DNA of 64,000 bases from the NCBI GenBank assembly GCA_963768575.1, contig CAVYIJ010000001.1, positions 9,106 to 73,105 on the forward strand. The letters run 5' to 3'. The notes beneath the pieces are model-generated. The model was not told the origin of the DNA and did not search any database. It was given only the letters and a program-made list of their open reading frames with translations. Positions 1-55,743 of the stretch are shown here, one piece after another (position 1 is the first letter of the stretch; each line of letters starts with the position of its first letter). Origin of the DNA: an uncultured Halobacteria archaeon (lineage in GTDB: Bacteria > Pseudomonadota > Gammaproteobacteria > UBA9214). A program made the position numbers and the translations under genes.

Positions 1-1964
1 GCATTGCTGGGTTCGTCCATGACCAGTACGGGCGGATCCCGCAACAAGGCTCTCGCAACCGCAATACTTTGCCGTTGACCGCCTGAAAGTTGTTCGCCGC
101 GTTCGCCGACCTGCAGGTCGAAACCGGACGGATGTCGATTGACGAAGTCCGTCACGCCGGCAATGGATGCCGCTTCCAGCACGGTGTTGTTATTTTCATG
201 CGGGGAGCTCATCAGGATATTGTCCTTCACTGTGCCGTAAAACAGATAGGTGTCCTGCGGCACATACCCGATGTTTCTGCGCAGGTCAGTGGGGTCGAGT
301 TGCCTGATGTCGGCGCCATCCATCAATACCGACCCGGAATCCGGTTCATACAAACCGAGAATCATGCGCTCGATGGTGCTTTTTCCGGAGCCGATACGCC
401 CGATGATTGCCGTATGTTCTCCGGGCTTGATGCTGAATGACACACCATCCAGTGCTTCGACTGACTGTCCCGGGTAGGCAAATGTCACCTTTCTGAATTC
501 AATGTGTCCCTTGAGGACGGGGCGGTCGAGGAATTCCTTGTCGGCGGGACGCTCGACCGGTGCATTCATGATTGCATCCGTCGATGCATAGGCGGTACGC
601 GCCTGGTGGTAGCGCGTCAGCGTCCCGGCTAACTGACCAAGGGGCGCCAGCGCGCGACCGGTCAGGATCGTCGATGCAATAAGTCCGCCCATGCTCAGCT
701 CGCCTTCGGCAATCAAATACACTCCGAAAATGACAACGGCGACTGTTGCAACCTGTTGCAGGAACTGGGTGATGTTCACGGCACTGGATGACAGGAAGCG
801 TGTCTTCATGCTCAGCTGGGCAATGATCCCGGTAAGCTGCTCCCAACGTCTTTGCGTCGCACCTTCCGCACCCAGGCTCTTTACGGTTTCGAGACCGGTC
901 AGCACCTCGATCAGCGTTGCCTGTTTTTGCGATGAGTGTTGAAGCAGGGCATCGACCCTGGCGGCGAGCGCGCGCTGTATTGCGAGACCGGCAAGCAGTG
1001 ACAGCGGCAGGACTGTCAGCGGGACCAGTGCCAGTGGCCCGCCGAGCAGCCAGATAATGAAAATGAACAGAAAAACGAATGGCAGGTCGATTAATGAGGT
1101 CAGCGTAGCCGAGGTGAAAAATTCGCGGAAACTGTCGAATTCATGAAGGTTGTTTGCATAGGCGCCTACGGATGCAGGCCGTGCCGACATCCTGACGCCC
1201 AGAACGCGCTCAAACACCATGGCGGAAAGGATGATATCCGCGCGCTTGCCGGCGACATCGAGGAAGTAGCCGCGCAGGGTGCGCATGAACAAATCGAAGA
1301 TGAATACAATGATGACACCTATGCCGAGTACCCAGAGTGTTTCGATGGCATGGTTCGGCACCACCCGGTCGTAAACATTCATGATAAATAACGGTGAGGC
1401 GAGGGCGAACAGGTTGATCAGCAGCGCGGCAAGCATGACTTCGCTGTAAATGGGCCAGGACTCCAGGAAGGTATCCCTGAACCAGTGCTGCGGGCGGGTG
1501 ATGACCGCATCCTTTACCCGTTTGTCGAACTGGTAACTTTCCTGCACAAAGATCGCAAAACCGGAGTAATCGGCAGCGATCGTGTCCAGTGGTACTGTAC
1601 TCACGCCATCACCGCTGTCGGGGAAAATAATGCGCACGCTATCGTCGTCGTTAACGAGGTCAAGAACGCACGCACGTCCCTCGGTAAGCAACAAAACAGC
1701 CGGCAGAACGAGGTTGGAGATCTTTTCGAGCGGCCGCTTGACGACCCTGGCCGACATGCCGGTCCGCCGGGCTGCCCGTATGAACAGTTCGGGTGTCAGC
1801 CGGTTGTTGACCAGTGGCAATCCAGCTGTCAGTGCATCACTGGTGGTCGGATTATGCTGAATCCTGCACAGCGTCAACAGGCACCCCAGCAACGGGTCAT
1901 CCTGGGTGCTGGCGTCACCCGGGACCTCCCATTGCATGCTGGTTGCGTTTTCCTGTGCAGTCAT
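1..1964 (-). CDS. lapB: Type I secretion ABC transporter, LapB/HlyB family (N-terminal C39-like domain + TMD + NBD); the C-terminal end lies beyond the window's left edge
   Basis: Reverse-strand translation from ATG at 1964 gives MTAQENATSMQWEV..., six TM segments, a Walker A motif GRIGSGKST and the ABC signature LSGGQRQSIAVARALL followed by VLVMDEP at the window edge. It sits next to lapD/lapG/lapA. Confidence 0.85.
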   Translation of the reverse strand, partial: MTAQENATSMQWEVPGDASTQDDPLLGCLLTLCRIQHNPTTSDALTAGLPLVNNRLTPELFIRAARRTGMSARVVKRPLEKISNLVLPAVLLLTEGRACVLDLVNDDDSVRIIFPDSGDGVSTVPLDTIAADYSGFAIFVQESYQFDKRVKDAVITRPQHWFRDTFLESWPIYSEVMLAALLINLFALASPLFIMNVYDRVVPNHAIETLWVLGIGVIIVFIFDLFMRTLRGYFLDVAGKRADIILSAMVFERVLGVRMSARPASVGAYANNLHEFDSFREFFTSATLTSLIDLPFVFLFIFIIWLLGGPLALVPLTVLPLSLLAGLAIQRALAARVDALLQHSSQKQATLIEVLTGLETVKSLGAEGATQRRWEQLTGIIAQLSMKTRFLSSSAVNITQFLQQVATVAVVIFGVYLIAEGELSMGGLIASTILTGRALAPLGQLAGTLTRYHQARTAYASTDAIMNAPVERPADKEFLDRPVLKGHIEFRKVTFAYPGQSVEALDGVSFSIKPGEHTAIIGRIGSGKSTIERMILGLYEPDSGSVLMDGADIRQLDPTDLRRNIGYVPQDTYLFYGTVKDNILMSSPHENNNTVLEAASIAGVTDFVNRHPSGFDLQVGERGEQLSGGQRQSIAVARALLRDPPVLVMDEPSN

Positions 1965-2536: not shown

Positions 2537-4507
2537 CTACTGAACGGCGCCGGTCAATGGCAGGGGTTTGCCGGTCAGATAACCCTGGATACCATCTACA
2601 TTGAGTGATTCGAGCATTTTACGTTCTGCGGGCGTCGCCACGGCCTGTGCAATCACCTTCACGTCGACACTGTGTGCAGTTTCTGTCAGTGCCTTGAGGA
2701 GAAACTGCTTGTCTTTGTCCGTGTCGATATTGCGTGTATAACTGCTGTCAACTTTCAGGTACTGTATCATCAGTGTTCGAAGATAGCCGAACGAATAAAA
2801 GCCGCTGCCAAAATGATCGATGCCGCAACGGCATCCCAGCGAGCCGAGCCGATCGACCAGGTTGCGGACATTCTGCATATTCATCATGGCTGCATACTCC
2901 GGGAATTCAATCAGCAAACGCCTCGCGAGAGACGAATGACTCTCCAGTTGACCGCATAGCCACTGGATAAATACGGCATCGTGGAGTGCGCCTGCAGACA
3001 GGTTAAAGGCGTATTTATCTGTACCATTGTCTTCACGGAGAAGCTCCAGCAGTCTTTTCGAAAAAAGCTTGTCCAGGCGGGATGACAGCTCCAGCCGTTC
3101 CGCCATCGGCATGAAAATGCCTGCCGCAATACCATTGCCGTTACTATCGGGAATCCTCGAGAGGATCTCCCTGTGGATGACGGATTTCGCGAATTTTCCC
3201 GTACCGTAGACTGGTTGTGCTTCAAGTATCACCTGTTCTGAATCAAGTACCTCGCGCAGTCGGGCGCGCCAGTGTTCCATGCCGAATATCCCGGACTGGT
3301 TTGCTGCGGGCGGGTTGAAATGTTGCCAGGTGTTGTGACCGGATGCCTGTGCAGCCCGTAACGCGGTGTCTGCCTCGGACAGCAATTCCGGGAGAGTCGT
3401 GCCGTGTTGCCACATGGCTACGCCGATATGCCCGATTTCGTTGGTTGTGACGAGTCCGTCTGCGCGGAGCTGGAAGAGTTCGCGGCACAGTGTCGCCGCG
3501 AGTGCATCGGCGCTTTCGTAGGCAAGGCCCGGAGCCACTATGCCGAAACTTGCTCCCGAGATTCTCGCCGCAACACAATGATCCAGGTCGTGGATCTGTG
3601 CCGTGATCAGCTCTGCTGTTCTGTGCAGAACTGCATCACCGGTAACGAAACCCGATCTTTCGTTGACCCGGGTGAAGTCGTGCAGCTCGAGTATTAACAA
3701 TGCGCCCTGTGTCGGGTCGTCGTTGCGCGAGAGCAGGGTTTCCATTCGGGAGTTGAAGAAACGCCGGTTTCCAAGTTCTGTCAATGTATCGCGGTAGGCC
3801 AGGTCACGCAGCTTCTCGGTCTGCGCCGATTGTTCGGAAAAGAATTTACCTACTTTCTCGGACAACCGGTTCATTGCAATGACGACACGCCGTAATTCGC
3901 GCGTACGCGGCAATGCGCGCTGTACTTCGTAATTCCTGTTACAGATGGCACTGGCCTGTAATTCAACCTTGCGCAGTGGCTGCAACAATACCCTCAGTGT
4001 AAAAAGGCCGATTATCAGCAATACAGTCGCGCAAGCCAGGAACAGCCAGAAGGTTTCGGTTGTATTTGCCCATAATTCCTGATTTGCGTTACCGGGATTA
4101 CTGGTGACGTGTATGCTGCCGGCCTGTTTCCAGCCGGCCATCACCAGCGCCTCTGCCACCGGCGCCTGCAACGAGACTGCGTCGATAAACCATTGCGGAA
4201 CGCTGTTTCCGGCGCTGGGGATCGACTTCTCCACCAGCGTTTCGCCGCTGATGGACAGCAATACGATTCTCTTGTAATCCCCGCGGTCGAAAATTGCATC
4301 GATCATGGTTTTGATGACTGAAAGGTCATTAGTCTGCATATGGGGTGATATTGACAAACCCAGCGAGGTTGCAGTGTCCTGGGCATGCGCGCCCAGCTGG
4401 GAGGAGAGGAACTGCTTCAGGTTGCCGGTGCTTATGTACACGGTACCGGTGAAGCAGATTACAAACAGGATGACAATGCTTGCTGATATCTGTTTGTATA
4501 GTGTCAT
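2537..4507 (-). CDS. lapD: LapD-like inner-membrane c-di-GMP receptor (periplasmic LapD/MoxY_N-like domain, HAMP, degenerate GGDEF, degenerate EAL)
   Basis: 656 aa. It has an N-terminal TM, a periplasmic segment, a second TM, an HAMP-like helix, a GGDEF-like region lacking the GGDEF motif (RISGASFGIV), and an EAL-like C-terminus lacking the catalytic EAL motif. It lies immediately downstream of lapG. Confidence 0.85.
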   Translation of the reverse strand: MTLYKQISASIVILFVICFTGTVYISTGNLKQFLSSQLGAHAQDTATSLGLSISPHMQTNDLSVIKTMIDAIFDRGDYKRIVLLSISGETLVEKSIPSAGNSVPQWFIDAVSLQAPVAEALVMAGWKQAGSIHVTSNPGNANQELWANTTETFWLFLACATVLLIIGLFTLRVLLQPLRKVELQASAICNRNYEVQRALPRTRELRRVVIAMNRLSEKVGKFFSEQSAQTEKLRDLAYRDTLTELGNRRFFNSRMETLLSRNDDPTQGALLILELHDFTRVNERSGFVTGDAVLHRTAELITAQIHDLDHCVAARISGASFGIVAPGLAYESADALAATLCRELFQLRADGLVTTNEIGHIGVAMWQHGTTLPELLSEADTALRAAQASGHNTWQHFNPPAANQSGIFGMEHWRARLREVLDSEQVILEAQPVYGTGKFAKSVIHREILSRIPDSNGNGIAAGIFMPMAERLELSSRLDKLFSKRLLELLREDNGTDKYAFNLSAGALHDAVFIQWLCGQLESHSSLARRLLIEFPEYAAMMNMQNVRNLVDRLGSLGCRCGIDHFGSGFYSFGYLRTLMIQYLKVDSSYTRNIDTDKDKQFLLKALTETAHSVDVKVIAQAVATPAERKMLESLNVDGIQGYLTGKPLPLTGAVQ

Positions 4508-4565: not shown

Positions 4566-5258
4566 CTACGGCATTTGTTCCGTACCGATCCTGGCGACGA
4601 CTTCTTTCCATCGGCTCAGGCGCTCCGGTTTGCCTACATGCTGTTCGTTGCCAGACGCACGCGAGAGCCATAAACCTTCGGCGTTGAAACTGTAAACCGG
4701 CAGCAAATCACTCCGGCTGGATGACGTCATAATCTCGGTGACGAGGTTATCGAGTACCAGCGGGTCTGCGTCAGGTGTCTGGAAGTAAGTTAACACCATA
4801 TGCGCCTGGTTCAACTTCAGGGCCTTTACATAGGTCATGCGCAGGTGGACCGCCGCAATACCCATCTCCCGCAAGGTGAAGTATTTTGCTATTGAGAAAT
4901 CTTCGCAGTCACCGCCATTGGATGCAAGTAGCTGCAGGGGGGTGGCCCAGTAATCTTCCACGCCCCAGTGATCGATATCATTGATGAATTCGACCCGGTT
5001 GAAAAAGGCATTGACGCGCTGAAGTTTTCCCAGGTCGTCGAGTTCCGAGCCTGACTGGATCAGGTCTTGCCATTCCTCGATTCTGGAGCGGGCCAGGCTG
5101 CCGTGTTCTTGCTCGATCGTACCGAGTGCATGCTGGCCGGGGGTAATATCGTCGCGCGCGAACGTGGTTGACATGCAGGTGACGTGCAGAACCATTACGA
5201 TGCAGTATTGCACCCATCTCGCGAGATTTCGTGATGGTAAATCGTTGTGCGCAGACAT
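4566..5258 (-). CDS. lapG: LapG-like periplasmic Ca-dependent cysteine protease (bacterial transglutaminase-like cysteine proteinase, C93)
   Basis: 230 aa with a signal-peptide-like N-terminus and the catalytic-Cys motif GGDCEDFSIAKY typical of LapG. lapG-lapD are arranged as an operon on the minus strand. Confidence 0.85.
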   Translation of the reverse strand: MSAHNDLPSRNLARWVQYCIVMVLHVTCMSTTFARDDITPGQHALGTIEQEHGSLARSRIEEWQDLIQSGSELDDLGKLQRVNAFFNRVEFINDIDHWGVEDYWATPLQLLASNGGDCEDFSIAKYFTLREMGIAAVHLRMTYVKALKLNQAHMVLTYFQTPDADPLVLDNLVTEIMTSSSRSDLLPVYSFNAEGLWLSRASGNEQHVGKPERLSRWKEVVARIGTEQMP

Positions 5259-5451: not shown

Positions 5452-5934
5452 ATGAAAAAAATCAGAATAACGCTAGTCTGCGCCGGCAAGGAGGACTACC
5501 CGGGTTGCGCGGACGTCCTGGCAACCTTCCACGAGTTCGAAATCATCGCCCGGCACCACAGCCTGACGACTGCCGGTATCTGGCGCGATCTGTCGAACAG
5601 TGATGTTGTCTTGCTGGATGAATCCGCGGTGATTCAGGATGGCAGCGACAGCGTGCGCGCGGTTCACGAAAGTTTTCCCTTTGCCAGAATCCTCCTGATT
5701 ATTGAAAAATCAAGCAAAAACAAGACAATAGAGGCATTATCCATGGGCATTACCGGGGTCATGGAGCGTGTCAACATGGTCGCCTCTATTCGCAAGGCAA
5801 TCCCTGTGCTGTACTCGGGCGAGACGTGGGTTTCGCGGGGATTGGTCGGTTCACTGCACAGCCAGCTTAAATATGCGGGCGATGACTCGCTGTTCCCGCA
5901 TGCCGCCGTGCGACCTCCGGACATAAAAAACTGA
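5452..5934 (+). CDS. Stand-alone atypical receiver (REC/CheY-like) domain protein
   Basis: 160 aa with a beta1-like KIRITLVCAGKEDY, a VVLLDES segment with an Asp at the phospho-acceptor position, and ILLIIEKSS. The upstream region 5380-5450 is AT-rich; the gene is on the same strand as and directly upstream of the adhesin gene. Confidence 0.5.
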   Translation: MKKIRITLVCAGKEDYPGCADVLATFHEFEIIARHHSLTTAGIWRDLSNSDVVLLDESAVIQDGSDSVRAVHESFPFARILLIIEKSSKNKTIEALSMGITGVMERVNMVASIRKAIPVLYSGETWVSRGLVGSLHSQLKYAGDDSLFPHAAVRPPDIKN

Positions 5935-6046: not shown

Positions 6047-6700
6047 ATGGCAAGTACACAGATAGGTAGAGTAGAAACGGTTGATGGCAACCTCACCGTG
6101 ACGCAGGCGGGCGGCGCTGCGACACCCTTGCAAGAGGGTATGCCGGTCTACCTGAACGATGTCATCCTTGCCGATGGTAGTGCCCATGCACGTTTGCGCC
6201 TGAATGACGGTTCTGCGCTGGACATCAACCCCGGGCAAGTCATTACGCTGGACGCAAACATATTCGATGCTTCAGGTAGCTACGTACCTGTCACCGACGG
6301 CAGTGTCGCGGTCATCACTTTGAGCGGAATCGGTGTTGTCAGCCACGTGGAAGGCAAGGTGCAGGTTTTACGGGATGGTCAGCCGCGCGAGCTGGTGGTG
6401 GGCGATACCCTGTACCCGGGGGACATCATCCAGACCGGCACTGATGGCGCCGCGACCATTCGTTTGCCGGATGGCACTGACTCCGATATCGGACCGGGTA
6501 TTCAGGCCAGGCTGGGTGCCGGTCCGCTCCCGTCAAGTGAAAGTGATTTTCTCTCCAGCGGTATAGAGGATCCGGCCGAGATCCAGGCGGCGATCCTGGC
6601 AGGCCGTGACCCGTCACAGGACGCACCTGCCCCCGGTACCGGCGAGACGGCGGGCAACGAGGGACATACGCACATCCGCATTCTTCCTTCCGATCGGGCA
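6047..6700 (+). other. N-terminal retention module of the LapA-like adhesin, including the region homologous to the LapG processing site
   Basis: Sequence ...EIQAAILAGRDPSQDAPAPGTGETAGNEGHTH... aligns to Pseudomonas fluorescens LapA ...QQAIAAGADPTQDLEATAAGPSAGGGG... Confidence 0.6.
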
Positions 6701-9700
6701 GTCACTCCGGAAAGTGGACACGATACCCACGGGCAGTCACTGCCTATCCAGCCCCTTATCGAGGAACTGCTCCAGACCGAGGACTCCATACCCGTTATCG
6801 ACGTCACCTATGTAACCGGTGAACCGGGCGTGGTGGATGAAGCCGGCCTGCCGAATGGTTCGAGCAGCAACGACGGTTCCACCATCACAAGCGGTGCTTT
6901 CACGATCGACACGGGCAACGACAACATCGCCGGCCTGGAAGTACAGGACAAGGACGGTAACTGGATTGACGTAACAGCCGGCAACGTAATGGTGCAGGGC
7001 GTGAACGGAGTGCTGACGGTCACGGGCACTGGTGGTAACTACCAGTGGACGTATGAGCTGACGAACAACCTGACGACACATGCGGATAACGATACGCAGG
7101 ACGGCGACAGCGACCGGGGCACGGCAGACCAGGTGCCAGGCGAAGCGTTCGATGTGCGGGTTATTGATGATGACGGCGATATTTCCCCGCCGGCCACGAT
7201 TGATATCGTTGTCAACGATGACGGACCGACGGCGGTGGACGACACGAACGCGCTGGCCGAGGGGACGGTGGCGCCGGTGACGGGGGATGTGCTGCTCAAT
7301 GACACGACGGGAGCGGACGTACCGGCGGCGTTTGTGGACTGGGCGAGCACGGCGGCGAGCTACGGCACGTTTTCGGACACGGGCAACGGCAGCTACAGTT
7401 ATGTGCTGGACAACACCAATCCACTGGTGCAGGGGCTGGACGTTGGCGAGTCGCTGACGGAGACGTTTGATTACACCATGGTGGACGCGGACGGGGACAC
7501 CAGTCCGGCGACGCTGACGATCACCATCAACGGGGCCGATGACATTCCGACGATCGTGGTGGACCCGGGTAATCCGGGTGGCGCCAACGACCAGGTGTTC
7601 GAGGAAGCGCTGTCGCCGGACGGCAGCAACCCGGCCTCGAACGGCGAGTTTGCGACGGGCACGATCACGCTGGCGGATGCCGATGGTCTGGACGACCTGG
7701 TCTCGGTGACGATCAACGGCACCACGGTGGCGCTGGGCAGCCTGGCGGGTTCGGTCTTTGCGGGCACGAACGGCACGCTGACGGTGACGGCCTACGACGC
7801 GCTCACGGGAGTGGCCACGTACAGCTACGAGTTGACGGCGCCGGCCACGGATGTGGCGGGCATCGAGAGCGATGACTTTACGCTGACGGTGTCCGACGGC
7901 AGTACGGACTCGGCGCCGGTGAGCATCGTGATCGAGATTATCGATGATGTGCCGACGGCGGTGGACGACACGAACGCGCTGGCCGAGGGGACGGTGGCGC
8001 CGGTGACGGGGGATGTGCTGCTCAATGACACGACGGGAGCGGACGTACCGGCGGCGTTTGTGGACTGGGCGAGCACGGCGGCGAGCTACGGCACGTTTAC
8101 GGACACGGGCAACGGCAGCTACAGTTATGTGCTGGACAACACCGACCCGCTGGTGCAGGGGCTGGACGTTGGCGAGTCGCTGACGGAGACGTTTGATTAC
8201 ACCATGGTGGACGCGGACGGGGACACCAGTCCGGCGACGCTGACGATCACCATCAACGGGGCCGATGACATTCCGACGATCGTGGTGGACCCGGGTAATC
8301 CGGGTGGCGCCAACGACCAGGTGTTGGAGGAAGCGCTGTCGCCGGACGGCAGCAACCCGGCCTCGAACGGCGAGTTTGCGACGGGCACGTTCACGCTGGC
8401 GGATGCCGATGGTCTGGACGACCTGGTCTCGGTGACGATCAACGGCACCACGGTGGCGCTGGGCAGCCTGGCGGGTTCGGTCTTTGCGGGCACGAACGGC
8501 ACGCTGACGGTGACGGCCTACGATGCGCTCACGGGAGTGGCCACGTACAGCTACGAGCTGACGGCGCCGGCCACGGACGTGGCGGGCATCGAGAGCGATG
8601 ACTTTACGCTGACGGTGTCGGACGGCACCACGGACTCGGCGCCGGCGAGCATCGTGATCGAGATTATCGATGATGTGCCGACGGCGGTGGACGACACGAA
8701 CGCACTGGCCGAGGGGACGGTGGCGCCGGTGACGGGCGATGTGCTGGCCAATGACGTCAGCGGTGCGGACGTACCGGCGGCGTTTGTGAGCTTTGCGAGC
8801 ACGGCGGCGAGTTACGGCACGTTCACGGACACGGGCAACGGGACCTACAGTTACCTGCTGGACAACACCGACCCGCGGGTGCAGGGGCTGGACGTGGGCG
8901 AGTCGCTGACGGAGACGTTTGCTTACACCATGGTGGACGCGGACGGCGACACCAGTCCGGCGACGCTGACGATCACCATCAACGGGGCCGATGACATTCC
9001 GACGATCGTGGTGGACCCGGGCAATCCGGGTGGTGCCAACGACCAGGTGTTGGAGGAAGCGCTGTCGCCGGACGGCAGCAACCCGGCCTCGAACGGCGAG
9101 TTTGCGACGGGCACCTTTACGCTGGCGGATGCCGATGGTCTGGACGACCTGGTCTCGGTGACGATCAACGGCACCACGGTGGCGCTGGGCAGCCTGGCGG
9201 GTTCGGTCTTTGCGGGCACGAACGGCACGCTGACGGTGACGGCCTACGATGCGCTCACGGGAGTGGCCACGTACAGCTACGAGTTGACGGCGCCGGCCAC
9301 GGATGTGGCGGGCATCGAGAGTGATGACTTTACGCTGACGGTGTCCGACGGCAGTACGGACTCGGCGCCGGTGAGCATCGTGATCGAGATTATCGATGAT
9401 GTGCCGACGGTATCGGGCGCTAATCTCGGCGAATTCGATGAAGGCAGCGGGCCGCAAATAATCGGCCCGGTCGAGACGGTATTGAATATTACGCCGGGTG
9501 CCGACGGTCTGCAGAGCATTACCTTCACCAGCCTCAATTCACTCGGCGGGACACTCGAAGTCATCAATGGCCAGCTGGTGTATACACCCCCCGCGGATGT
9601 CGATAACGGGGATAGCGGCACCGATCTGCAGCTCGAAACCTTCCAGGTGACGGTGACTGACGGGGATGGCGATATCGCGGTATCGCAGGTGTCTGTCGAG

Positions 9701-11218
9701 GTTGTCAGCCCGGAACTCATTGTCGGCAGCAACAGCGATGATGACGGTCCGGACGACGGGATGGACCCGCATACGGTGAATACCACGCCGGCGGCCTCGG
9801 GTGCCATCGTCGGCACCGGTGGCGTGGATTTCCTGGCAGGTGATATTGGCGGTACTACCATCACGGCCACGAACGCCAACGTCATCCTGATACTCGATAC
9901 CTCGGGCAGCATGACCGCATCGATCAACTTTACCGACAGTAACGGCGTGACAACATCGATGTCCCGCATTGAAGCACAGAAGCTGGCGGTGAACAGCCTG
10001 CTGGGCGAGATGGCGGCAAGCGGTGCCAGCGAGGTGCGTGTGCACCTTGTTGAATTCAATACCGACGCTGCAAGTCTGGGTACCTTCGATCTCAAGAGCG
10101 GCGGCCTGCAGTCGGCAATCAATGCGGTCAATGCAACAACCGCCGGTGGATGGACCAACTACGAGGCGGCACTCCAGCAGGCGATAGACTGGTCCGCGGT
10201 GCCGGGCAACCTGTTGAGTGGCAGCAATACCGTCAATCAGGCCTTTTTTGTTTCCGATGGACAGCCGAACCGCTTCTTGCAGACTGATGGCACAGTCAGT
10301 CCCACCGTCTCGGCCGCAAGCGCCATGAGTCAGGTGTTGGGCACGGATACGTCCGGTTCCCAGCAGGACAACACCAACGAGGTCCTGATTCTTGAAGGCC
10401 AGTTCGGGCCCATCGAGGCGGTTGGTATTGCGCTCACCAGTCAGAGTGACATCAGTAACCTGGACCAGATCGAGGGCGAGGCCCGGGGTTCGGGTTCCGC
10501 GGATAACATATTCACGGCGAATGAGCTGATCACGACGCTGTCGGATCTCAATCCGTTGACACAGTTGACTGCGGCGGGTAACGACATTATCAATGGCGGC
10601 GACGGTGACGACATCATTTTCGGTGATTCAATGTTTACCGATGCGCTGGCAGTAAACCAGGGCCTGTCAACACCGGCCGGGTCAGGCTGGCAGGTTTTTG
10701 CCGACCTGGAAGCCACGCCGGGCTGGGGCCGTGAAGAAACTACCGATTACATTCGTGCCAACCACGCTGAACTGGCTGCGGAAGCGACACAGGGCCGCGG
10801 CGGCGGGGACGACATTATCGATGCCGGGGCCGGTAACGACATTGTCTACGGCCAGGAAGGCGACGATCGCATTTCCGGTGGTGCGGGCGATGACATCCTG
10901 TCCGGTGGCAGCGGTGCCGATACTTTCGTCTGGATAGCAAACGAGTCGGGTGCCGACGAGGTACTGGACTTCAATACCGGTGAAGGCGACGTGCTGGATA
11001 TTGCCTCCTTGCTGGTTGGCGAGAGCAATCCGACCGCGGCCGAACTGGACGGCACCTACATGAGTATTGCCTCGGGTGCTGACACGATCATCACCGTATT
11101 CGGCGATAGCGGCAATGCCGACCAGGTTATCCAGCTGACCGGATTCAATACGAGCGGTCTGGACAGCGTGCAGATCATCGAGAACCTGTTGACGAACGGC
11201 AATCTGGTAACGGACTGA
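6047..11218 (+). CDS. lapA: LapA-like giant RTX adhesin / biofilm-associated T1SS substrate (N-terminal retention module, Ig/cadherin-like extender repeats, VWA domain, RTX repeats, C-terminal secretion signal)
   Basis: The open frame runs 5987-11218, but AAGGA at 6034-6038 sits 8 nt before ATG 6047 (MASTQIGRVETVDG...), which matches the LapA-type N-terminus. The product has 3x242-aa repeats, a DTSGSM MIDAS motif, GGxGxD nonapeptide repeats (GGDGDDIIFGD, GGAGDDILSGGSGADTF), and an acidic C-terminal tail. Confidence 0.9.
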   Translation: MASTQIGRVETVDGNLTVTQAGGAATPLQEGMPVYLNDVILADGSAHARLRLNDGSALDINPGQVITLDANIFDASGSYVPVTDGSVAVITLSGIGVVSHVEGKVQVLRDGQPRELVVGDTLYPGDIIQTGTDGAATIRLPDGTDSDIGPGIQARLGAGPLPSSESDFLSSGIEDPAEIQAAILAGRDPSQDAPAPGTGETAGNEGHTHIRILPSDRAVTPESGHDTHGQSLPIQPLIEELLQTEDSIPVIDVTYVTGEPGVVDEAGLPNGSSSNDGSTITSGAFTIDTGNDNIAGLEVQDKDGNWIDVTAGNVMVQGVNGVLTVTGTGGNYQWTYELTNNLTTHADNDTQDGDSDRGTADQVPGEAFDVRVIDDDGDISPPATIDIVVNDDGPTAVDDTNALAEGTVAPVTGDVLLNDTTGADVPAAFVDWASTAASYGTFSDTGNGSYSYVLDNTNPLVQGLDVGESLTETFDYTMVDADGDTSPATLTITINGADDIPTIVVDPGNPGGANDQVFEEALSPDGSNPASNGEFATGTITLADADGLDDLVSVTINGTTVALGSLAGSVFAGTNGTLTVTAYDALTGVATYSYELTAPATDVAGIESDDFTLTVSDGSTDSAPVSIVIEIIDDVPTAVDDTNALAEGTVAPVTGDVLLNDTTGADVPAAFVDWASTAASYGTFTDTGNGSYSYVLDNTDPLVQGLDVGESLTETFDYTMVDADGDTSPATLTITINGADDIPTIVVDPGNPGGANDQVLEEALSPDGSNPASNGEFATGTFTLADADGLDDLVSVTINGTTVALGSLAGSVFAGTNGTLTVTAYDALTGVATYSYELTAPATDVAGIESDDFTLTVSDGTTDSAPASIVIEIIDDVPTAVDDTNALAEGTVAPVTGDVLANDVSGADVPAAFVSFASTAASYGTFTDTGNGTYSYLLDNTDPRVQGLDVGESLTETFAYTMVDADGDTSPATLTITINGADDIPTIVVDPGNPGGANDQVLEEALSPDGSNPASNGEFATGTFTLADADGLDDLVSVTINGTTVALGSLAGSVFAGTNGTLTVTAYDALTGVATYSYELTAPATDVAGIESDDFTLTVSDGSTDSAPVSIVIEIIDDVPTVSGANLGEFDEGSGPQIIGPVETVLNITPGADGLQSITFTSLNSLGGTLEVINGQLVYTPPADVDNGDSGTDLQLETFQVTVTDGDGDIAVSQVSVEVVSPELIVGSNSDDDGPDDGMDPHTVNTTPAASGAIVGTGGVDFLAGDIGGTTITATNANVILILDTSGSMTASINFTDSNGVTTSMSRIEAQKLAVNSLLGEMAASGASEVRVHLVEFNTDAASLGTFDLKSGGLQSAINAVNATTAGGWTNYEAALQQAIDWSAVPGNLLSGSNTVNQAFFVSDGQPNRFLQTDGTVSPTVSAASAMSQVLGTDTSGSQQDNTNEVLILEGQFGPIEAVGIALTSQSDISNLDQIEGEARGSGSADNIFTANELITTLSDLNPLTQLTAAGNDIINGGDGDDIIFGDSMFTDALAVNQGLSTPAGSGWQVFADLEATPGWGREETTDYIRANHAELAAEATQGRGGGDDIIDAGAGNDIVYGQEGDDRISGGAGDDILSGGSGADTFVWIANESGADEVLDFNTGEGDVLDIASLLVGESNPTAAELDGTYMSIASGADTIITVFGDSGNADQVIQLTGFNTSGLDSVQIIENLLTNGNLVTD
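7223..9400 (+). repeat. Three tandem near-identical 726-bp (242-aa) coding repeats inside the adhesin gene (7223-7948, 7949-8674, 8675-9400)
   Basis: The period is exactly 726 bp (the motif gtgccgacggcggtggacgacacgaac recurs at 7949 and 8675). Copies 1 and 2 differ at only a few codons; copy 3 is slightly more diverged. Each unit contains a VDDTNALAEG...GDVLLNDTTGAD cadherin/VCBS-like module. Confidence 0.9.
9875..10290 (+). other. von Willebrand factor A (VWA) domain of the adhesin
   Basis: ANVILILDTSGSM (MIDAS DxSxS) ... FFVSDGQPN. Confidence 0.7.
10590..10930 (+). other. RTX calcium-binding nonapeptide repeats followed by a C-terminal T1SS secretion signal (to 11218)
   Basis: GGDGDDIIFGD; GGGDDIIDAGAGNDIVYGQEGDDRISGGAGDDILSGGSGADTF. 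Confidence 0.75.
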
Positions 11219-25825: not shown

Positions 25826-26113
25826 TTATGCTGCTGATATTTTCTTCACATTCAATTTGTCACGTTTCTTTTCGGCTTCCCATAGATCGTACTGTGACTG
25901 CTGGTTCAGCCAGCTTTCGGAAGAGGTACCGAAAGCTAAGGAGAGACGTACTGCCATCTCAGGACTAATTCCAGAACGGCCATTAAGGATCGACGATAAC
26001 GTCTTACGGGTTACGCCCAGCGCTTCGGCAGCCTCAGTAATACTCAGCCCTAAAGGCTCAATACATAGTTCCCGCAGAACTTCACCTGGATGTGGGGGAT
26101 TGTGCATCTTCAT
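25826..26113 (-). CDS. higA: HigA antitoxin (HTH_XRE addiction-module antidote)
   Basis: 95 aa, [24 protein letters not shown]; downstream of higB, spaced by 9 bp. Confidence 0.8.
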
Positions 26114-26122
26114 CAGTACACC

Positions 26123-26401
26123 TCAATGATAGTCTTCATAATCTACTGTTTCTGCATCTTTGCCCTTAAAACGGAATGTCACGCGCCAGTTACCGCTCAC
26201 CCAAACTGACCAAATACTTTTACGTTTTCCACCCAACTCATGCAAATTGAGACCTGGCAGATCCATATCCTTGGGATTTGTTGATGCATTTAAACGGCCC
26301 AATATTAACTTCAGCCGATTAGCGTGCTTGGCCTGAATTCCTGACTTGGTTCCTTTCAAAAAGAATCTTTCAAGACCTTTGTGCTTGAAACTCCTTATCA
26401 T
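26123..26401 (-). CDS. higB: HigB toxin (RelE/ParE superfamily, HigB-like killer protein)
   Basis: 92 aa MIRSFKHKGLERFF...WRVTFRF; toxin-upstream-of-antitoxin order typical of higBA. Confidence 0.8.
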   Translation of the reverse strand: MIRSFKHKGLERFFLKGTKSGIQAKHANRLKLILGRLNASTNPKDMDLPGLNLHELGGKRKSIWSVWVSGNWRVTFRFKGKDAETVDYEDYH

Positions 26402-26529
26402 AGGCAGTAAGTGTAACCTATAACGTTACGGGTTACAAGCTGATGATTGTAGCATAACGACTGAAGTGAGCCGCGCCTGCGAAGCAGGCGTCGGGCCCGC
26501 CTGGAAGGCGGGCGTACTCGACTGACTTG

Positions 26530-26847
26530 TTATGTGTTTTCAATGTCACTGTTAGCTCTTAAATCAAATACTGTTACTGCATTTTGCGGAGAATTATATG
26601 GAAACTCATATAACAAACCTGCTTCAATCCCTTTACAGAACCACGAGAAACGAACGCCTGGAGGTGAGATGTATCTATCATTTGTTTTCCAATACTCTTC
26701 AGATGCTTCAAAGTTTCCACAGACATAGTTATTGCAAGTTCGAGATGGCAATTCAACGTCATGAAAGCTGCAGAACTCTATACCCTCTCTGATCTTCTTA
26801 TAATTTGCGCAATAAACGCAATCTAGAGAACCTTTACCATTAGCCAT
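26530..26847 (-). CDS. Cys-rich small hypothetical protein (105 aa), encoded in an AT-rich segment
   Basis: Seven Cys (CVYC...CSFH...C..C...C); local GC is about 40% against about 62% genome background; lies inside the repeat-bounded higBA cassette. Confidence 0.45.
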   Translation of the reverse strand: MANGKGSLDCVYCANYKKIREGIEFCSFHDVELPSRTCNNYVCGNFEASEEYWKTNDRYISPPGVRFSWFCKGIEAGLLYEFPYNSPQNAVTVFDLRANSDIENT

Positions 26848-27059
26848 AGCAATATTTACACATAACTACTATTGGGCGAACGAATGCTCGTTTTGTAAAG
26901 GATATGCATTGACCATAACTATAATCGATGATCCATCAGTTCAACAGCTTAAAGCGATTAATGCGTGTTATGGAGACCTAAATTACACGCAATAGCGTAC
27001 ATTCAACAGCACAGTTATTCGGAAGGATACGGTAATGTTCCAACATTTGCTGTTCTCGA

Positions 27060-27165
27060 CACGCCTGGCAAATAATTGGGGTCAGAGCACAATTGTTCCT
27101 ATGTGTTCTCGGTAGCAATTATTTGATCTTTTCTCTGCGCCTTGGCGCCTCTGCGTGAGGCGATT
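27060..27165 (-). repeat. REP/MITE-like element, copy 2 (inverted relative to copy 1)
   Basis: Reverse complement reads ...CTCACGCAGAGGCGCCAAGGCGCAGAGAAAAGATCAAATAATTGCTACCGAGAACACATAGGAAC... Confidence 0.7.
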
Positions 27166-27174
27166 TTAAGGTTG

Positions 27175-28458
27175 TTATCCAGGCCGGCGGAATTGCCTCA
27201 GCCAGTTACCGAACTTCTCGGCCGGCATCGGTTTGGCGACTATGTAGCCCTGGACCTTGTCGCAGTCCAGTTTTCTCAATGCCGCAAGGGTATCCGGGTC
27301 CTCGGCGCCTTCCGCCACCACGGAAAGTCCGAACTTGTGCGCCAGGTCAATGATCAGGGCAACGATCTTGGCGTTGGCCTCGTCTTCCAGGAGGCCGGCT
27401 ACAAATGAACGGTCGATTTTCAGTTCATCCGCCGGGATGTCCCGGAAATAGGACAGGCTGGAATAGCCCGTACCGAAATCATCAATCGATATCCTGATAC
27501 CCTCGCTGCGCAGCTCTTTGAGTTTTGCGAAACAATTCTCTACGTCCTCCACGAAGTTTTGTTCCAGAACTTCCAGTGAAAGCGTTATATTTCCGTTGCC
27601 CCATAAACCGTCGGAACTGAGGACAAGGTCGACAAAGTCAGGCTGCTCGAGCAGTTTCGTGGGGATATTGACCGAAACATCCAGTGCGCCCCATTGTTCC
27701 GTCCATTCGTTGCTCAAGCGCAATGCACTATTAAGCATCCAGACCGTGATTGGTTTTATCAGCCCCAGTTCTTCAGCAACCGGCAGAAAGATGCCCGGGG
27801 CGAGCAGGCCGCGTGAGGGACTGTTCCAGCGAATCAATGCCTCTGCGCCGGTTGGCTTTCCGGTGGACAGTGATATTTTAGGCTGGAAGTAGACGCACAG
27901 TTCCGAATTATCAATTGCCCTGGCCAGCTCGATCTCTATATCCCAGTTGCCTGAAATAATTAACTCTTCGGGGGCATCTGCGATACTGAAGAACTCCTCG
28001 GTACGTTTTGACTTGTCCAGTGCAGCCTCGGCCTGCTTGAGCATGTCATTTGCCTCGGAACTGTGTACAGGGCACAGGGCAATGCCGACATGGGCGCTAC
28101 AGGCCAGTTTTCCGCTATCCAGCTCGACCGGGAGGTCGAGCAGCCGCTGTATCTTGAATGCGGCAAGAGTTGCATGACCTTCATTGACAATGCCGGATAG
28201 CAGCAGGGCAAATTCATTATCACCAATTCTGGCGATGTAATCCCCTTGCCGCTTGACCTTGCCCAGTATATCTGCAAATGAGCGCAGCACGCGGTCGCCG
28301 GCTTCATGGCCATACGTGCTGTTTATCCTGCGAAAGCGATCGATCTTGATGATGAATAACGCGATCATTATCGCGTGCTCGTTGGATTCCTTTACTTGCC
28401 CGCTAAGGATTTCCATGAACTGCTGGCGATCGGGTAACCCGGTAATGGTGTCGGTCAT
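27175..28458 (-). CDS. Degenerate-GGDEF / EAL protein (predicted c-di-GMP phosphodiesterase)
   Basis: 427 aa. The GGDEF position reads RIGDNEF (degenerate). The EAL domain has EALIRW, DDFGTGYSSL and the QGY motif intact. Confidence 0.85.
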   Translation of the reverse strand: MTDTITGLPDRQQFMEILSGQVKESNEHAIMIALFIIKIDRFRRINSTYGHEAGDRVLRSFADILGKVKRQGDYIARIGDNEFALLLSGIVNEGHATLAAFKIQRLLDLPVELDSGKLACSAHVGIALCPVHSSEANDMLKQAEAALDKSKRTEEFFSIADAPEELIISGNWDIEIELARAIDNSELCVYFQPKISLSTGKPTGAEALIRWNSPSRGLLAPGIFLPVAEELGLIKPITVWMLNSALRLSNEWTEQWGALDVSVNIPTKLLEQPDFVDLVLSSDGLWGNGNITLSLEVLEQNFVEDVENCFAKLKELRSEGIRISIDDFGTGYSSLSYFRDIPADELKIDRSFVAGLLEDEANAKIVALIIDLAHKFGLSVVAEGAEDPDTLAALRKLDCDKVQGYIVAKPMPAEKFGNWLRQFRRPG

Positions 28459-51747: not shown

Positions 51748-52588
51748 TTTGTGCATTTTGTCATTGCGAGCGCAGTATAGCAATCTCATAAATCGTGAGG
51801 CATTCTCTAACAATCTATACAACAATCGTATGGGATTGCGGCGTAGCTTACGCTCCTCTCAATGACGGCCTGTACACACCGTGTCATCACAATCATTAAT
51901 ACCGTAGCGTGATGGTGCGAAAGCTTCGCGTCAGGTGACCCAGGAGTACCACCAGGAACAGCATCATCTCGAGCATCTCCAGGCTTTTCTCCAGAGATTT
52001 TGCAAAATTTAGAATTGCACAGGCTTCATTCCGCAGGTCGCTTCAAACCAGTCATACTCTTCAATGATGCCTTCTATGAAGTTCTTTTCTTACGGAAAAT
52101 GTGAAACAGAAAAAGGTCGCAAGAACGGCTAATTTCTCATTGCGGGGAGATAGCTCCGTCTAAAATATAGTACAGGATGTCAACAATGCTCGATAGTCTT
52201 TACAACTGGCTACTACTGGCTGATAAATATTTTTCTTTACAAGCAAGCCATGCATGCGAGATTTATATGTTCAACTATCAAGTAAATACCCTGGAAAGTG
52301 TTTATGATCTATTTGAATATATAACACCTGCTCTGATCTTCCGGCAGCGTGACTAAAACGCTTCTGTCTTAATATCTGCCGTCCGCGTGTGCCAGTCGGA
52401 GAATAAAACTACCCGTGCTGGACGTCTGCAAGATAGGTGAAAAACAGGTCCGTCAGCTTTGTATGACGCGAATTAGACAGTTCTCTTCGACTTGCCGCAA
52501 GCAACTACAACAATCGAGCGCAATATACCAAGTAGAAAGATTATGCATCTTGTATAAGAGACGGGTACATCAATTGGAGGAAGTAATA

Positions 52589-53309
52589 ATGAAACGATTA
52601 TCCAAATCTAAAAACAATTACCACGCTGATCGGGGGGCTTACGCTTTCAGGCGTTGTCTGCGCCGGCGCGGTTGTCATTAATGATGAAATGCCCAGAAGA
52701 GCGCCGGGCAGCACCAGCGGTAGTGGCGACACGGTTGAAGCCAACTGCCCGACCGATCCCAGTGGCAATGACTGGCAGGGTGCCACGGCTGAACTCATGG
52801 TCCGGCAGGTCGGCGGTGGCAGCACCGTGGATATCGACGTGAAGAATGCAGTGCCCAACACGGTGTTCACTGTCTGGATGCGTATGGCAAGGGCGGTGCC
52901 GGGTTCAATGACGATCGGCAGTCCCATGACCGGTGGTGGCGCGACGCCACTGGCTGCCGGGAACTGCCTGGATGGTGCTGCTTCAACTACCGCCTCCGGT
53001 TCCAGCCGGCAGGCAGCGCCAATCCGACCAACGGCTTCACCACGAATGCCAATGGCACAGGTCACTTCAGTATCGATCTGGATTTCCCGGTCGTTGGTGG
53101 CGCCTATCCATTCCAGAAGGCAAGCGACGCCGCTGGCAGGCCTGATCAATGCTGAAGCCTGGCTCCAGAATGTACCCACACCGATCGTCAACCCGGCAGA
53201 TCGCAATATCGGTGGACCGTTCCTGCTCCGCGTGATTTCGCACTGCACGGACCAGCAGGGTCATGGCCTGTCCCCGGGTGTACGTGAAGCCTGGTTCCAG
53301 TATCCGTGA
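52589..53309 (+). pseudogene. Secreted protein gene of unknown function with frameshifts (A-run 52610-52614 and about 2 more internally)
   Basis: GGAGGAAG 5 nt before ATG 52589. MKRLSKSK then a shifted frame gives a signal peptide ITTLIGGLTLSGVVCAGAVV. The middle part is protein-like only in a different frame (FNYRLRFQPAGSANPTNGFTTNANGTGHFSIDLDFPVVGG). Confidence 0.5.
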
Positions 53310-53765
53310 GTGGATTTGAGTTATTGTTAGCTAAGTAACAATAAAGTCGTTTGTAACAGCAAAGGGTGCTGCCTTGCAGGCAGCGCCCTTTTTATTACGG
53401 TTGTACAGGGCCGGGAGGGAAGTACTTGCGGCCGTGCGAAGCATGATAATAGCCATGCTGTTGGTCCGGAGCATTAAACCCGAATGAATCCGGTCGGCAA
53501 CAGATATTATTTATTAGGGTAAACCCTGAGTGAATTCGAGCTCATTCCCTGGTTATGTTATGCATCTCCTCGAAATGTTCATGTATTAATTCACAGCAGC
53601 AAGGCATCACACCGCTCAAATATCACATCGTTCATAAATTATTTGGAATAAATCGACCCTGCTTTCCATCTACTATAAGCGGCAAGACGACGGCCATAAG
53701 AATATCAGCCAATTATTATAGCTATTAACGGCTGGTGGGAGATTCAGCGTCGACAGGGGGGGGTA

Positions 53766-55204
53766 GTGGAGGCACCTAGAATATTGTGTGTCGATCTACG
53801 GCATGGCAGGGAGTCGCCGTGTGCGCAATATACACTGGGCAGTGCCTACCACACGGAAGTCGTCGATAACCATTGTGTTATTGATAGTTACATTGAAAGG
53901 TTTCAGCCCGGTATATTGTGTTTCGATTACGATCTGCCTGATCAAACGGGACTGATGGCGCTGGAGCAAACCCGTTCCCGGCATCCGATGGTTACCAATA
54001 CTGATGCTAACCACGGGATCACTCCGTGGAGTTGGCGATCTGGGCCCTGAGGTTACGCGTGTGGGACTACTTCACGAAGCCGGTGGGGATCGATGAGTTG
54101 GTCAATAGTATTGCCGGATTGCCTGAAATGAAACCAGGCACCTGCAAGCATGGAGGAGACTACTGGGCGATTCAGCCTCTTGATCTTCCAGAATCCCGCT
54201 CGTTCGGGACCACTATAAAGAAAATACCAACAGCGCTAGCGACGACCTATGTTCGGGAACACCTGGACAAGAAAATCAGCCTGGAAATCGTGTCCAAACT
54301 ATGCGGCATGAGCAAATCCCATTTCAGCCGGTCATTCAAGAACGACCACGGGATTACATTTCAGAATTATCTCGCCCAACAGAGGATAGATAGGGCATTA
54401 GCCCTGCTGAAAGATTCCGATATGCAAGTAACCCAGGTGGCCTTTGCAGTTGGATTCACTGAACTTTCCAACTTTACGCGGACATTTCAACGTCATATCG
54501 GCATGAGTCCTTCATATTATCGCAAGGCGATCACTTCCCGGCTATTACAGATAAAAGACCGAAGAAGCCAGTCTACGAAATTCCCGAAGGCAAATCCGAA
54601 CCCGGTACTTTCCGTTGGCCCGGATGGTTTGCCGGATTTTGTGAATCCTGCCGCGTCATATTTGCTTAAAGAGATCGGCCTGGAGAATGTTGAATACATC
54701 TTGCCAACCAATCACCGGGTGCTGGTAAAAACATCCCTGGATACCAACATGCCGATGAGTGAAGAACGCAGGATCGCGGGTCGGACCATTGTATGGTCGT
54801 ACTGCCCGATCGATGATAGTGAAACAGTTCACCTCTATGGCAATGATGTATCCGATTATGTTTCTGATAGCCCCGGTGTTGAAAGTATTTCCAGGGAAAG
54901 CACGAACCCGGTGCTTTCGCTGGAGCCGGACGGTGAGCCGCGATTTATGAATTCGGCAACATGCCAGTTACTTGAAGAATTGAAACTGGAAAATATCGAG
55001 GAAATTTTGCCTTCCAACCATACAAGCCTTTTGAAAGCCTGCCTGAAAACCAGCACGCCACTGGCTGAAGAGTGCAGAGCGGCAGGCAGAACAATAATCT
55101 GGTCGTATCATCCTGCCAACAGTAATGACGTGATTTATGTCTATGGGCAGGAAGTGTCCGGTTGCGCCGGCAAAAGTAGCAGCAACAAAGTTTCAGTCAT
55201 CTAG
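53766..55204 (+). pseudogene. Response-regulator-type transcription factor with the architecture REC - AraC/XylS HTH - two tandem PAS-like repeats; the REC domain is broken by two frameshifts within about 45 nt (53975-54020)
   Basis: REC reads ILCVDLRHG...ILCFDYDLPDQTGLMALEQTRSRHP (frame 0), then LPILMLTTGSLRG (frame 1), then SVELAIWALRLRVWDYFTKP (frame 2). AraC HTH: ISLEIVSKLCGMSKSHFSRSFK...VTQVAFAVGFTELSNFTRTFQR. The C-terminus has two ~100-aa repeats NPVLSxxPDGxPxFxNxA...AGRTIxWSY. Confidence 0.6.
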
Positions 55205-55743
55205 CCGATCCAGTGAACGGTCATTATCGGATTAATCATATGACAGTATCCATAGATTATTATTCCGCTCCTGTCTGTTCAATTTGAAGAATTCAGGACA
55301 GGAAGAAGCAGCCAGTGGTTCAAAGTGGCGATAATGGCTTAACGGTCGGGCTATACTCAGCGGAGATGTAGACAAGCCATAACTAGAGCGCAGCAATTCT
55401 GCGCCAGGAAGTAATATCAACAAAATAATCAATATATTTAGTTAGATGCAGATTAATTATCATGTTGTTTATAACAAATAAACAATCGTGGCGGTTACCG
55501 GGGGCAAATCAGTATCTGAATAATGAAGTAGCGTCGCTGTGCAATGACGGAATAAAAAGCAGGACAAAAGAGTCTTATTTTAATAACAAATATAACGAAC
55601 CGGGTGCCAGGGGTATAAAAAACACTTGCAGAGGCATGGTGAAAACCTGCGCCGGCGCGTCCTGTGCCACGCATATATTGTGCTGACCCATAGCAACAAC
55701 CCTCACATCAGGCGCATAACATGGCTGGAACGAAACGATAAAT

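Follow-up and report, generated by a model that had tools for sequence, protein, structure and literature searches.

The Lap-type locus and its adhesin gene

[quoted passage not shown] The features on which the argument rests are the following.

3..1964, minus strand: LapB-type ABC transporter of a type I secretion system (T1SS), with ABC_membrane and ABC_tran domains; about 70 C-terminal aa are cut off by the window start
2537..4507, minus strand: LapD-like c-di-GMP receptor, 656 aa, with LapD_MoxY_N, GGDEF and EAL domains
4566..5258, minus strand: LapG-like Ca-dependent cysteine protease (BTLCP), 230 aa; matches to PF06035, NF045674 and 4u65_E
5452..5934, plus strand: receiver-like ORF, 160 aa, between lapG and the adhesin gene
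6047..11218, plus strand: LapA-like RTX adhesin, 1723 aa, from the ATG at 6047 to the stop at 11218; profile matches
6059..6490, plus strand: two tandem beta-rich retention domains, aa 5-67 and 88-148; AF2 strands, pLDDT 70-86
6572..6604, plus strand: predicted LapG 'targeting helix', P176-AEIQAAILAG-186, invariant in the four-sequence alignment A1
6608..6613, plus strand: conserved DP motif, D188-P189, setting the register of the cleavage site (alignment; PMC13090378; bioRxiv 10.1101/198937)
6632..6643, plus strand: homologue of the LapG motif by alignment register, P196-G197-T198-G199, CCC GGT ACC GGC
6644..6655, plus strand: E-T-A-G (GAG ACG GCG GGC), four residues downstream of PGTG; variable linker, not the homologue of the site
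6656..6736, plus strand: linker NEGHTHIRILPSDRAVTPESGHDTHGQ, conserved (many invariant columns) and predicted to be unstructured (AF2 pLDDT <50)
7188-9365: 726-nt (242-aa) tandem repeat in three copies, starting at 7188, 7914 and 8640; repeat search

By profile score and architecture, the adhesin is a member of the retention-module adhesin family. Its retention module scores 87.4 bits against NCBIfam NF033682 (retention_LapA, cutoff 50) over aa 95-230, and profile searches identified, in addition, the three 242-aa VCBS/cadherin-like repeats (TIGR01965), a VWA domain (PF13519, VWA_2), RTX repeats (PF00353) and a T1SS C-terminal signal (TIGR03661, T1SS_VCA0849, at aa 1637-1720). The protein therefore exceeds 1000 aa and ends in RTX repeats and a T1SS signal. 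Translation of its N-terminus in the frame opened by the ATG at 6047 includes EIQAAILAGRDPSQDAPAPGTGETAGNEGHTH. The retention beta domain is duplicated—a self-comparison of aa 5-78 with aa 97-170 (6059-6556) gave 34% identity (E 4e-6)—and most relatives contain the second domain only, their alignments starting at about residue 94 of the query. As many as six matched stretches were observed in one representative, P0014.

An AF2 model of aa 1-260 was confident for the two beta domains only; it placed a low-confidence helix at aa 176-184 and left the remainder, linker included, disordered. As modelled, the N-terminus matches the published substrate layout of a retention domain, a targeting helix, a DP turn, the scissile motif and an unstructured linker (PMC13090378). 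The helix is followed by the DP motif (PAEIQAAILAG-R-DP), which recurs in 139/143 aligned relatives drawn from the best 150 of 406 database matches. By analogy with the published model, the segment P176-186 is predicted to target LapG (PMC13090378), and the linker NEGHTHIRILPSDRAVTPESGHDTHGQ presumably threads the outer-membrane channel, as in the LapA model (bioRxiv 10.1101/198937).

Further downstream, the copies of the 726-nt repeat show 86-94% identity in their first 300 nt and encode the VCBS/cadherin-like units; they also generate a spurious, Arg-rich antisense ORF of 906 aa (6737-9457). Such repeats probably account for the fragmentation of the homologous genes in metagenome contigs, where short ORFs take their place, as in P0001 (331 aa) and P0002 (343 aa), each with a separate gene after it.

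Partner genes and gene order

The Cys-His-Asp triad and the Ca-binding D-x-E motif are present in the LapG of the window (D117-C118-E119, H153 and D170 are intact), which scores 61 bits against PF06035 (cutoff 27) and matches chain 4u65_E of P. fluorescens LapG with an E-value of 1.8e-57; its GGDCEDF, NQAHMVL and LVLDN segments align with the LapG structures of P. fluorescens and Legionella pneumophila. LapD carries the three expected domains (PF16448, PF00990 and PF00563) and matches NF045673 over its full length. Both proteins fall below the NCBIfam equivalog cutoffs—248 bits against 320 for LapG (NF045674) and 537 against 1020 for LapD—although their sequences make them clear homologues. 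The lower scores, together with the receiver-like ORF between lapG and the adhesin gene, distinguish the locus from that of Pf0-1.

The ABC transporter is 82% identical to that of the syntenic locus L001 over residues 1-654 of 724. Genes for the membrane fusion (MFP) and outer-membrane (OMP) components of the secretion system would fall beyond the window start; in the syntenic loci L001 and L002 they are present alongside the ABC gene and a GerE-type regulator. The order lapD-lapG-REC-adhesin is retained in all nine related loci (8 distinct contigs, since L007 is L004), with the receiver-like ORF in the same place at 50-68% identity; this ORF has weak response-regulator matches and no Pfam match. 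At the corresponding position, and by position only, ORFs of 152 and 146 aa were seen in L011 and L014. A small ORF on the plus strand between the ABC transporter gene and lapD (approximately 2130-2489) is 72% identical to a 134-aa ORF at the same position in L001, for which no Pfam domain is recorded. Scanning the window for Rfam families and tRNAs gave no matches.

Register of the cleavage site

To place the cleavage site, the 248-aa N-terminus was searched against 1.84 billion cluster representatives, which returned 406 matches at E<=1e-3; the best 150 were fetched and aligned to the query with phmmer. The informative set comprised those 137 representatives, the window itself included, that carry the DP motif. 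In this set, drawn from the best 150 of the 406 matches, 119/137 contain [T/A/P]AA[G/V] in the phmmer alignment, and the motif starts at the seventh residue after DP in 114 of these 119 canonical sequences. The spacing agrees with that of LapA, in which 'DPxxxLxx' is followed by TAAG (bioRxiv 10.1101/198937), and a LapA-like representative, P0116 (DPTQDLEATAAG), shares the register: DPTQDLEA-TAAG there corresponds to DPSQDAPA-PGTG in the window. PGTG is almost certainly the homologous site, arisen by substitution, and the scissile bond in the window would be G197|T198.

An earlier note on this DNA had equated the E-T-A-G at nt 6644-6655 with the TAAG of LapA and proposed, among other options, that 3 nt were missing. 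On retranslation, its peptide and codons (GAG ACG GCG GGC) proved right. The equation with TAAG does not hold, as the alignment puts the slot at PGTG, four residues upstream, and the ETAG region is variable, reading TAG, TES, TDS, RAD or SAG in the alignment of close relatives. The register is settled by locus L009, which reads DAPAPAAGE-SAG-NEGHTH and thus combines the canonical motif, as PAAG, with an xAG at the ETAG position; the same sequence, along with the lack of any gap against the nearest relatives, refutes the idea of missing nucleotides. The alignment for which the note had called, with the prospect of a di-alanine slot elsewhere, relocated the position and left the oddity standing, given that the slot is not di-alanine in the lineage of the window. 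Hence, the two remaining readings of the note—a non-canonical site, or an adhesin that is not released—concern PGTG (aa 196-199) rather than ETAG.

No canonical [T/A/P]AA[G/V] was found anywhere in the adhesin N-terminus, and a regular-expression search for DP-x-[TAP]AA[GV] found none in any of the six frames of the 64-kb window. Adjacent alanines occur just three times within aa 1-260, as two GAAT tetrapeptides belonging to the beta domains and one QAAI belonging to the helix, which confirms the statement that no di-alanine follows the DP motif. The canonical site is truly absent through a two-residue substitution, not through a missing alanine. Because [T/A/P]AA[G/V] is among the features by which LapG substrates are defined, the adhesin cannot be asserted to be one.

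Inheritance of the substitution

PGVG occupies the slot in L001/P0001, L003, L004 (the same contig as L007) and P0004, all from other metagenomes or MAGs. These relatives share 61-63% identity with the window and 86-96% among themselves; on these sequences, they and the window group as one clade, next to a sister clade (P0002/L002, L005, L008, L009 and P0003) that reads PAAG. Over the site segment, the window is exactly as long as its nearest relatives. The P1 glycine codon, GGT, is common to the window and to L001, L003 and L004, the PGVG contigs for which the DNA was read. At P1', the codon is ACC in the window, GTC in L001 and L003, GTA in L004 and GCC in the sister clade. ACC and GTC are each one transition away from GCC, whereas a direct exchange of Thr for Val takes two changes, which suggests a PGAG ancestor. 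Most parsimoniously, the common ancestor would have replaced PAAG by PGAG, and the alanine left at P1' would later have given way to Thr and to Val independently.

These observations bear on the possibility that the alanines were altered or lost through faulty sequencing or assembly or through the deletion of 3 nt. Long, near-identical repeats such as those of the adhesin gene could trouble assembly, yet they start about 550 nt downstream of the site. Moreover, two separate codons differ (GGT ACC against GCC GCC), the length equals that of the nearest relatives, the GGT at P1 recurs in three independent PGVG contigs from other samples, and PAAG and xAG coexist in L009. An artefact has next to no probability, and sequencing error is, for practical purposes, excluded.

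One of the PGVG contigs, L003 (CAWKAE010000011.1), is titled as a MAG of an 'uncultured Halobacteria archaeon'. It carries the lapD-lapG-REC-adhesin block as in proteobacterial loci, together with large ORFs where L001 has its T1SS genes, and is probably mis-binned or mislabelled.

Site variation across the family

Departures from di-alanine extend beyond the clade of the window. Among the 137 representatives (from the best 150 of 406 matches), 13 (9.5%), the window included, lack Ala-Ala at the site: PGAG occurs five times and PGVG twice, with single cases of PGTG (the window), PVAG, PTAG, TASG, IASG and PATG. A further five of the 137, within the same best 150 of 406, keep Ala-Ala and have N, S or A at P2', and locus L010 provides an additional PGAG. 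Only in the clade of the window is there no Ala at either P1 or P1' (137 representatives; best 150 of 406 matches).

The replacements at P1 and P1' are confined to G, V, T or S in this set of 137 (best 150 of 406 matches). Pro, Asp and Glu, which are equally one nucleotide away from GCN, never occur at the site among the same 137 representatives from the best 150 of 406. Assuming 12 independent events at equal rates, a rough estimate for this outcome is (4/6)^12, or ~0.008; with about 12 independent events, the restriction to small residues makes free drift unlikely.

Several variant adhesins lie beside Peptidase_C93 genes: L010 (PGAG) and L014 (PVAG), both with lapD-lapG, and L013 (PGAG). No lapG or lapD was found within 8 kb upstream of the PGAG adhesin gene of L011 (Ga0224511_10000600), where a molybdopterin oxidoreductase operon lies instead. 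At L011 there are also genes for the T1SS ABC and MFP components and for a GerE regulator, as well as a small ORF upstream, and the adhesin of this locus is a possible natural parallel to PA1874 of Pseudomonas aeruginosa, discussed below.

Constraint on the recognition element and on LapG

Between the window and L001, synonymous sites are near saturation (pS ~0.7). Across the helix-DP-site segment (aa 174-199), pN/pS is 0.07 at a pS of 0.71, as compared with 0.32 for aa 1-250, and the two proteins differ at two residues of the segment only, aa 174 (E/D) and P1' (T/V). Comparisons inside the PGVG group gave 7 synonymous and 0 non-synonymous differences for the same segment, among them a silent GTC/GTA exchange in the Val codon itself. 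From these values and counts it follows that the best-conserved part of the N-terminus is the LapG-recognition element, in a clade without di-alanine. On the side of the protease, the GDCED, H and D positions are intact in the LapG of every related locus.

No LapG residue was found to co-vary cleanly with the site, as all 15 positions specific to the clade without di-alanine vary in other LapGs. Any tolerance would therefore be intrinsic rather than the result of a re-tuned pocket. A K-to-E exchange at LapG residue 212, the only charge reversal, was considered as a candidate and set aside, since it does not track the site across L009, L010, L013 and L014.

Does LapG cut the Gly-Thr site?

In the published mechanism, the retention module stalls the adhesin in the outer-membrane channel, LapD holds LapG while c-di-GMP is high, and LapG, once free, cuts between two alanines so that the adhesin slips out (PMC3032545; bioRxiv 10.1101/198937; PMC13090378). 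The locus described here would encode a system of this c-di-GMP-controlled type: the T1SS would export the adhesin, the folded N-terminal retention module would stall it in the outer-membrane channel, LapD would hold LapG at high c-di-GMP, and free periplasmic LapG would cut between the retention module and the linker, thereby releasing the adhesin. What differs is the scissile dipeptide, which, in the register DP-x6-[T/A/P]-A|A-G, has changed from Ala-Ala to Gly-Thr in the window and reads Gly-Val in its nearest relatives. The best reading, on which we are evenly divided, is that LapG still cuts here by tolerating small residues: it would dock on the unchanged helix-DP element and then cleave the G197|T198 bond. 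The true requirement of LapG might then be two small, uncharged side chains and not strictly Ala-Ala, and cutting could be slower, so that the adhesin would be held more firmly.

Continued cleavage is favoured by the register, the inheritance of the substitution, the intact partner genes, the constraint on the module, the restriction of the variation to small residues and the variant adhesins linked to lapG. The small number of protease contacts beyond the scissile bond in published modelling (PMC13090378) counts in the same direction. Several points weigh against it. Thr or Val, both beta-branched, takes up more room at P1' than Ala; the lack of any LapG residue changing cleanly with the site means that no re-tuned pocket is seen; and the PGAG adhesin of L011 lacks a lapG gene within 8 kb upstream. 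In addition, every characterised LapG or DvhG substrate carries Ala-Ala (LapA, MapA, FrhA, CraA, RtxA, BrtA, DvhA and DVU1545), and cleavage in vitro is lost on an AA-to-RR exchange (PMC3032545). P. fluorescens LapG also leaves the degenerate AAAIG of PA1874 uncut (bioRxiv 10.1101/198937), which indicates that the LapG site is not freely tolerant.

The latter observations are also the core of the main rival explanation, namely that the site is dead: the retention module would anchor the adhesin and LapG could not release it, as for PA1874. We regard this as a rather unlikely, if serious, possibility. On this view, lapG and lapD would be kept for another substrate encoded elsewhere in the genome, and the conserved helix-DP element would serve anchoring or a non-productive binding of LapG. 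Besides the exclusive presence of Ala-Ala in proven substrates and the uncut RR and AAAIG variants, a dead site would fit with the position of the window clade as the only one lacking Ala at both P1 and P1' (among the 137 representatives from the best 150 of 406), with the two independent changes at P1' (T and V), as expected under relaxed constraint, and with the fact that LapG systems often serve two or more adhesins, some of them encoded elsewhere (PMC13090378). On the other hand, P2 Pro, P2' Gly, P3' Glu and the whole helix-DP segment are invariant at saturated synonymous divergence; the main substrate is normally the operon-encoded adhesin; the lapD-lapG-adhesin order is found in all five subclade-A loci; and replacements across the family are small residues only (137 representatives; best 150 of 406). 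No second LapG substrate was detected in the 64-kb window: a profile built from the best 150 of 406 relatives revealed no further retention module, and the six-frame search yielded no DP-x-[TAP]AA[GV].

A third explanation is that LapG or another periplasmic protease cuts at another bond—in the APAP stretch, at T-A|G, or at QA|AI in the helix. LapA with the AA-to-RR exchange is partly released in vivo, an effect attributed to nearby di-alanine-like sites (PMC3032545; PMC10990149), and the window does have an A-G at aa 202-203. However, TAG is already replaced by TES or TDS in the relatives nearest to the window, QAAI lies within the docking helix and looks like the AAAI that goes uncut in PA1874, and the spacing of the site from DP is very tightly fixed across the family. 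Ala-Pro bonds, moreover, are poor protease substrates. Cleavage at another bond thus appears very improbable.

Returning to cleavage at the Gly-Thr site, the family-wide pattern raises a more general proposal. Provided that helix-DP docking and the P2/P2' context are in place, LapG may tolerate any of Gly, Ala, Val, Thr and Ser at the two positions P1 and P1', in which case the di-alanine rule would be too narrow; we advance this tentatively, as a proposition somewhat short of an even chance. If it holds, the Gly-Thr/Gly-Val clade could conceivably represent the extreme of a series—PGAG, PVAG, PTAG, TASG and PATG—that sets the release rate, a suggestion we put forward with similar reserve.

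Relation to known systems and implications

The adhesin resembles LapA of P. fluorescens Pf0-1 in its retention module, helix, DP motif, C-terminal RTX repeats and T1SS signal. It differs from LapA in its Gly-Thr scissile pair, in the duplicated retention beta domain and in its smaller size of 1723 aa. Other T1SS adhesins controlled by LapG or DvhG are FrhA and CraA of Vibrio cholerae, RtxA of L. pneumophila, BrtA of Bordetella bronchiseptica, and DvhA and DVU1545 of Desulfovibrio vulgaris; BrtA and DvhA also share a VWA domain with the adhesin of the window. The motif in these proteins varies at P2 (PAAG, AAAG, TAAG), but, unlike that of the window, it always keeps Ala-Ala.

The closest parallel in another respect is the BapA-type adhesin PA1874 of P. 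aeruginosa, which likewise has a retention module of the LapA kind and a LapG site that departs from the canonical motif. In the published record it is the precedent for retention without cutting by LapG, its retention module being functional (bioRxiv 10.1101/198937). PA1874 keeps Ala-Ala in the wrong context (AAAIG) and was found by its proximity to lapEBC homologues, not beside lapDG, whereas in the window the context (P2 Pro, P2' Gly, helix and DP) is perfect, P1 and P1' alone differ, and lapG and lapD are adjacent. In the literature searched, no report was found of a lapG-linked adhesin with a non-alanine scissile pair; a mutagenesis study of the LapG site, reportedly by Cooley et al., lay outside that search.

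The locus thus presents an apparently complete, strongly constrained Lap module whose own adhesin departs from [T/A/P]AA[G/V], the motif used for genome-wide prediction of LapG substrates (bioRxiv 10.1101/198937), and ~9% of related clusters depart from it too. If the di-alanine rule is too narrow, screens based on this motif would miss about one in ten clusters of retention-module adhesins. If LapG cuts Gly-Thr, both the specificity rule and the substrate catalogues would need widening, and the chemistry of the site would be a plausible evolutionary dial for the firmness of cell adhesion. If LapG does not cut, the window would hold a natural lapDG-linked adhesin that escaped from c-di-GMP-controlled release, raising the question of what LapG and LapD do here. 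In each case, the gain for the field is incremental, consisting in a clade-level departure from the di-alanine rule within the known Lap system and not in a new kind of system.

Elsewhere in the window, the local G+C content dips to 0.47-0.50 at 26001-28000 and 52001-56000, against ~0.58 for the window; these segments may be islands.
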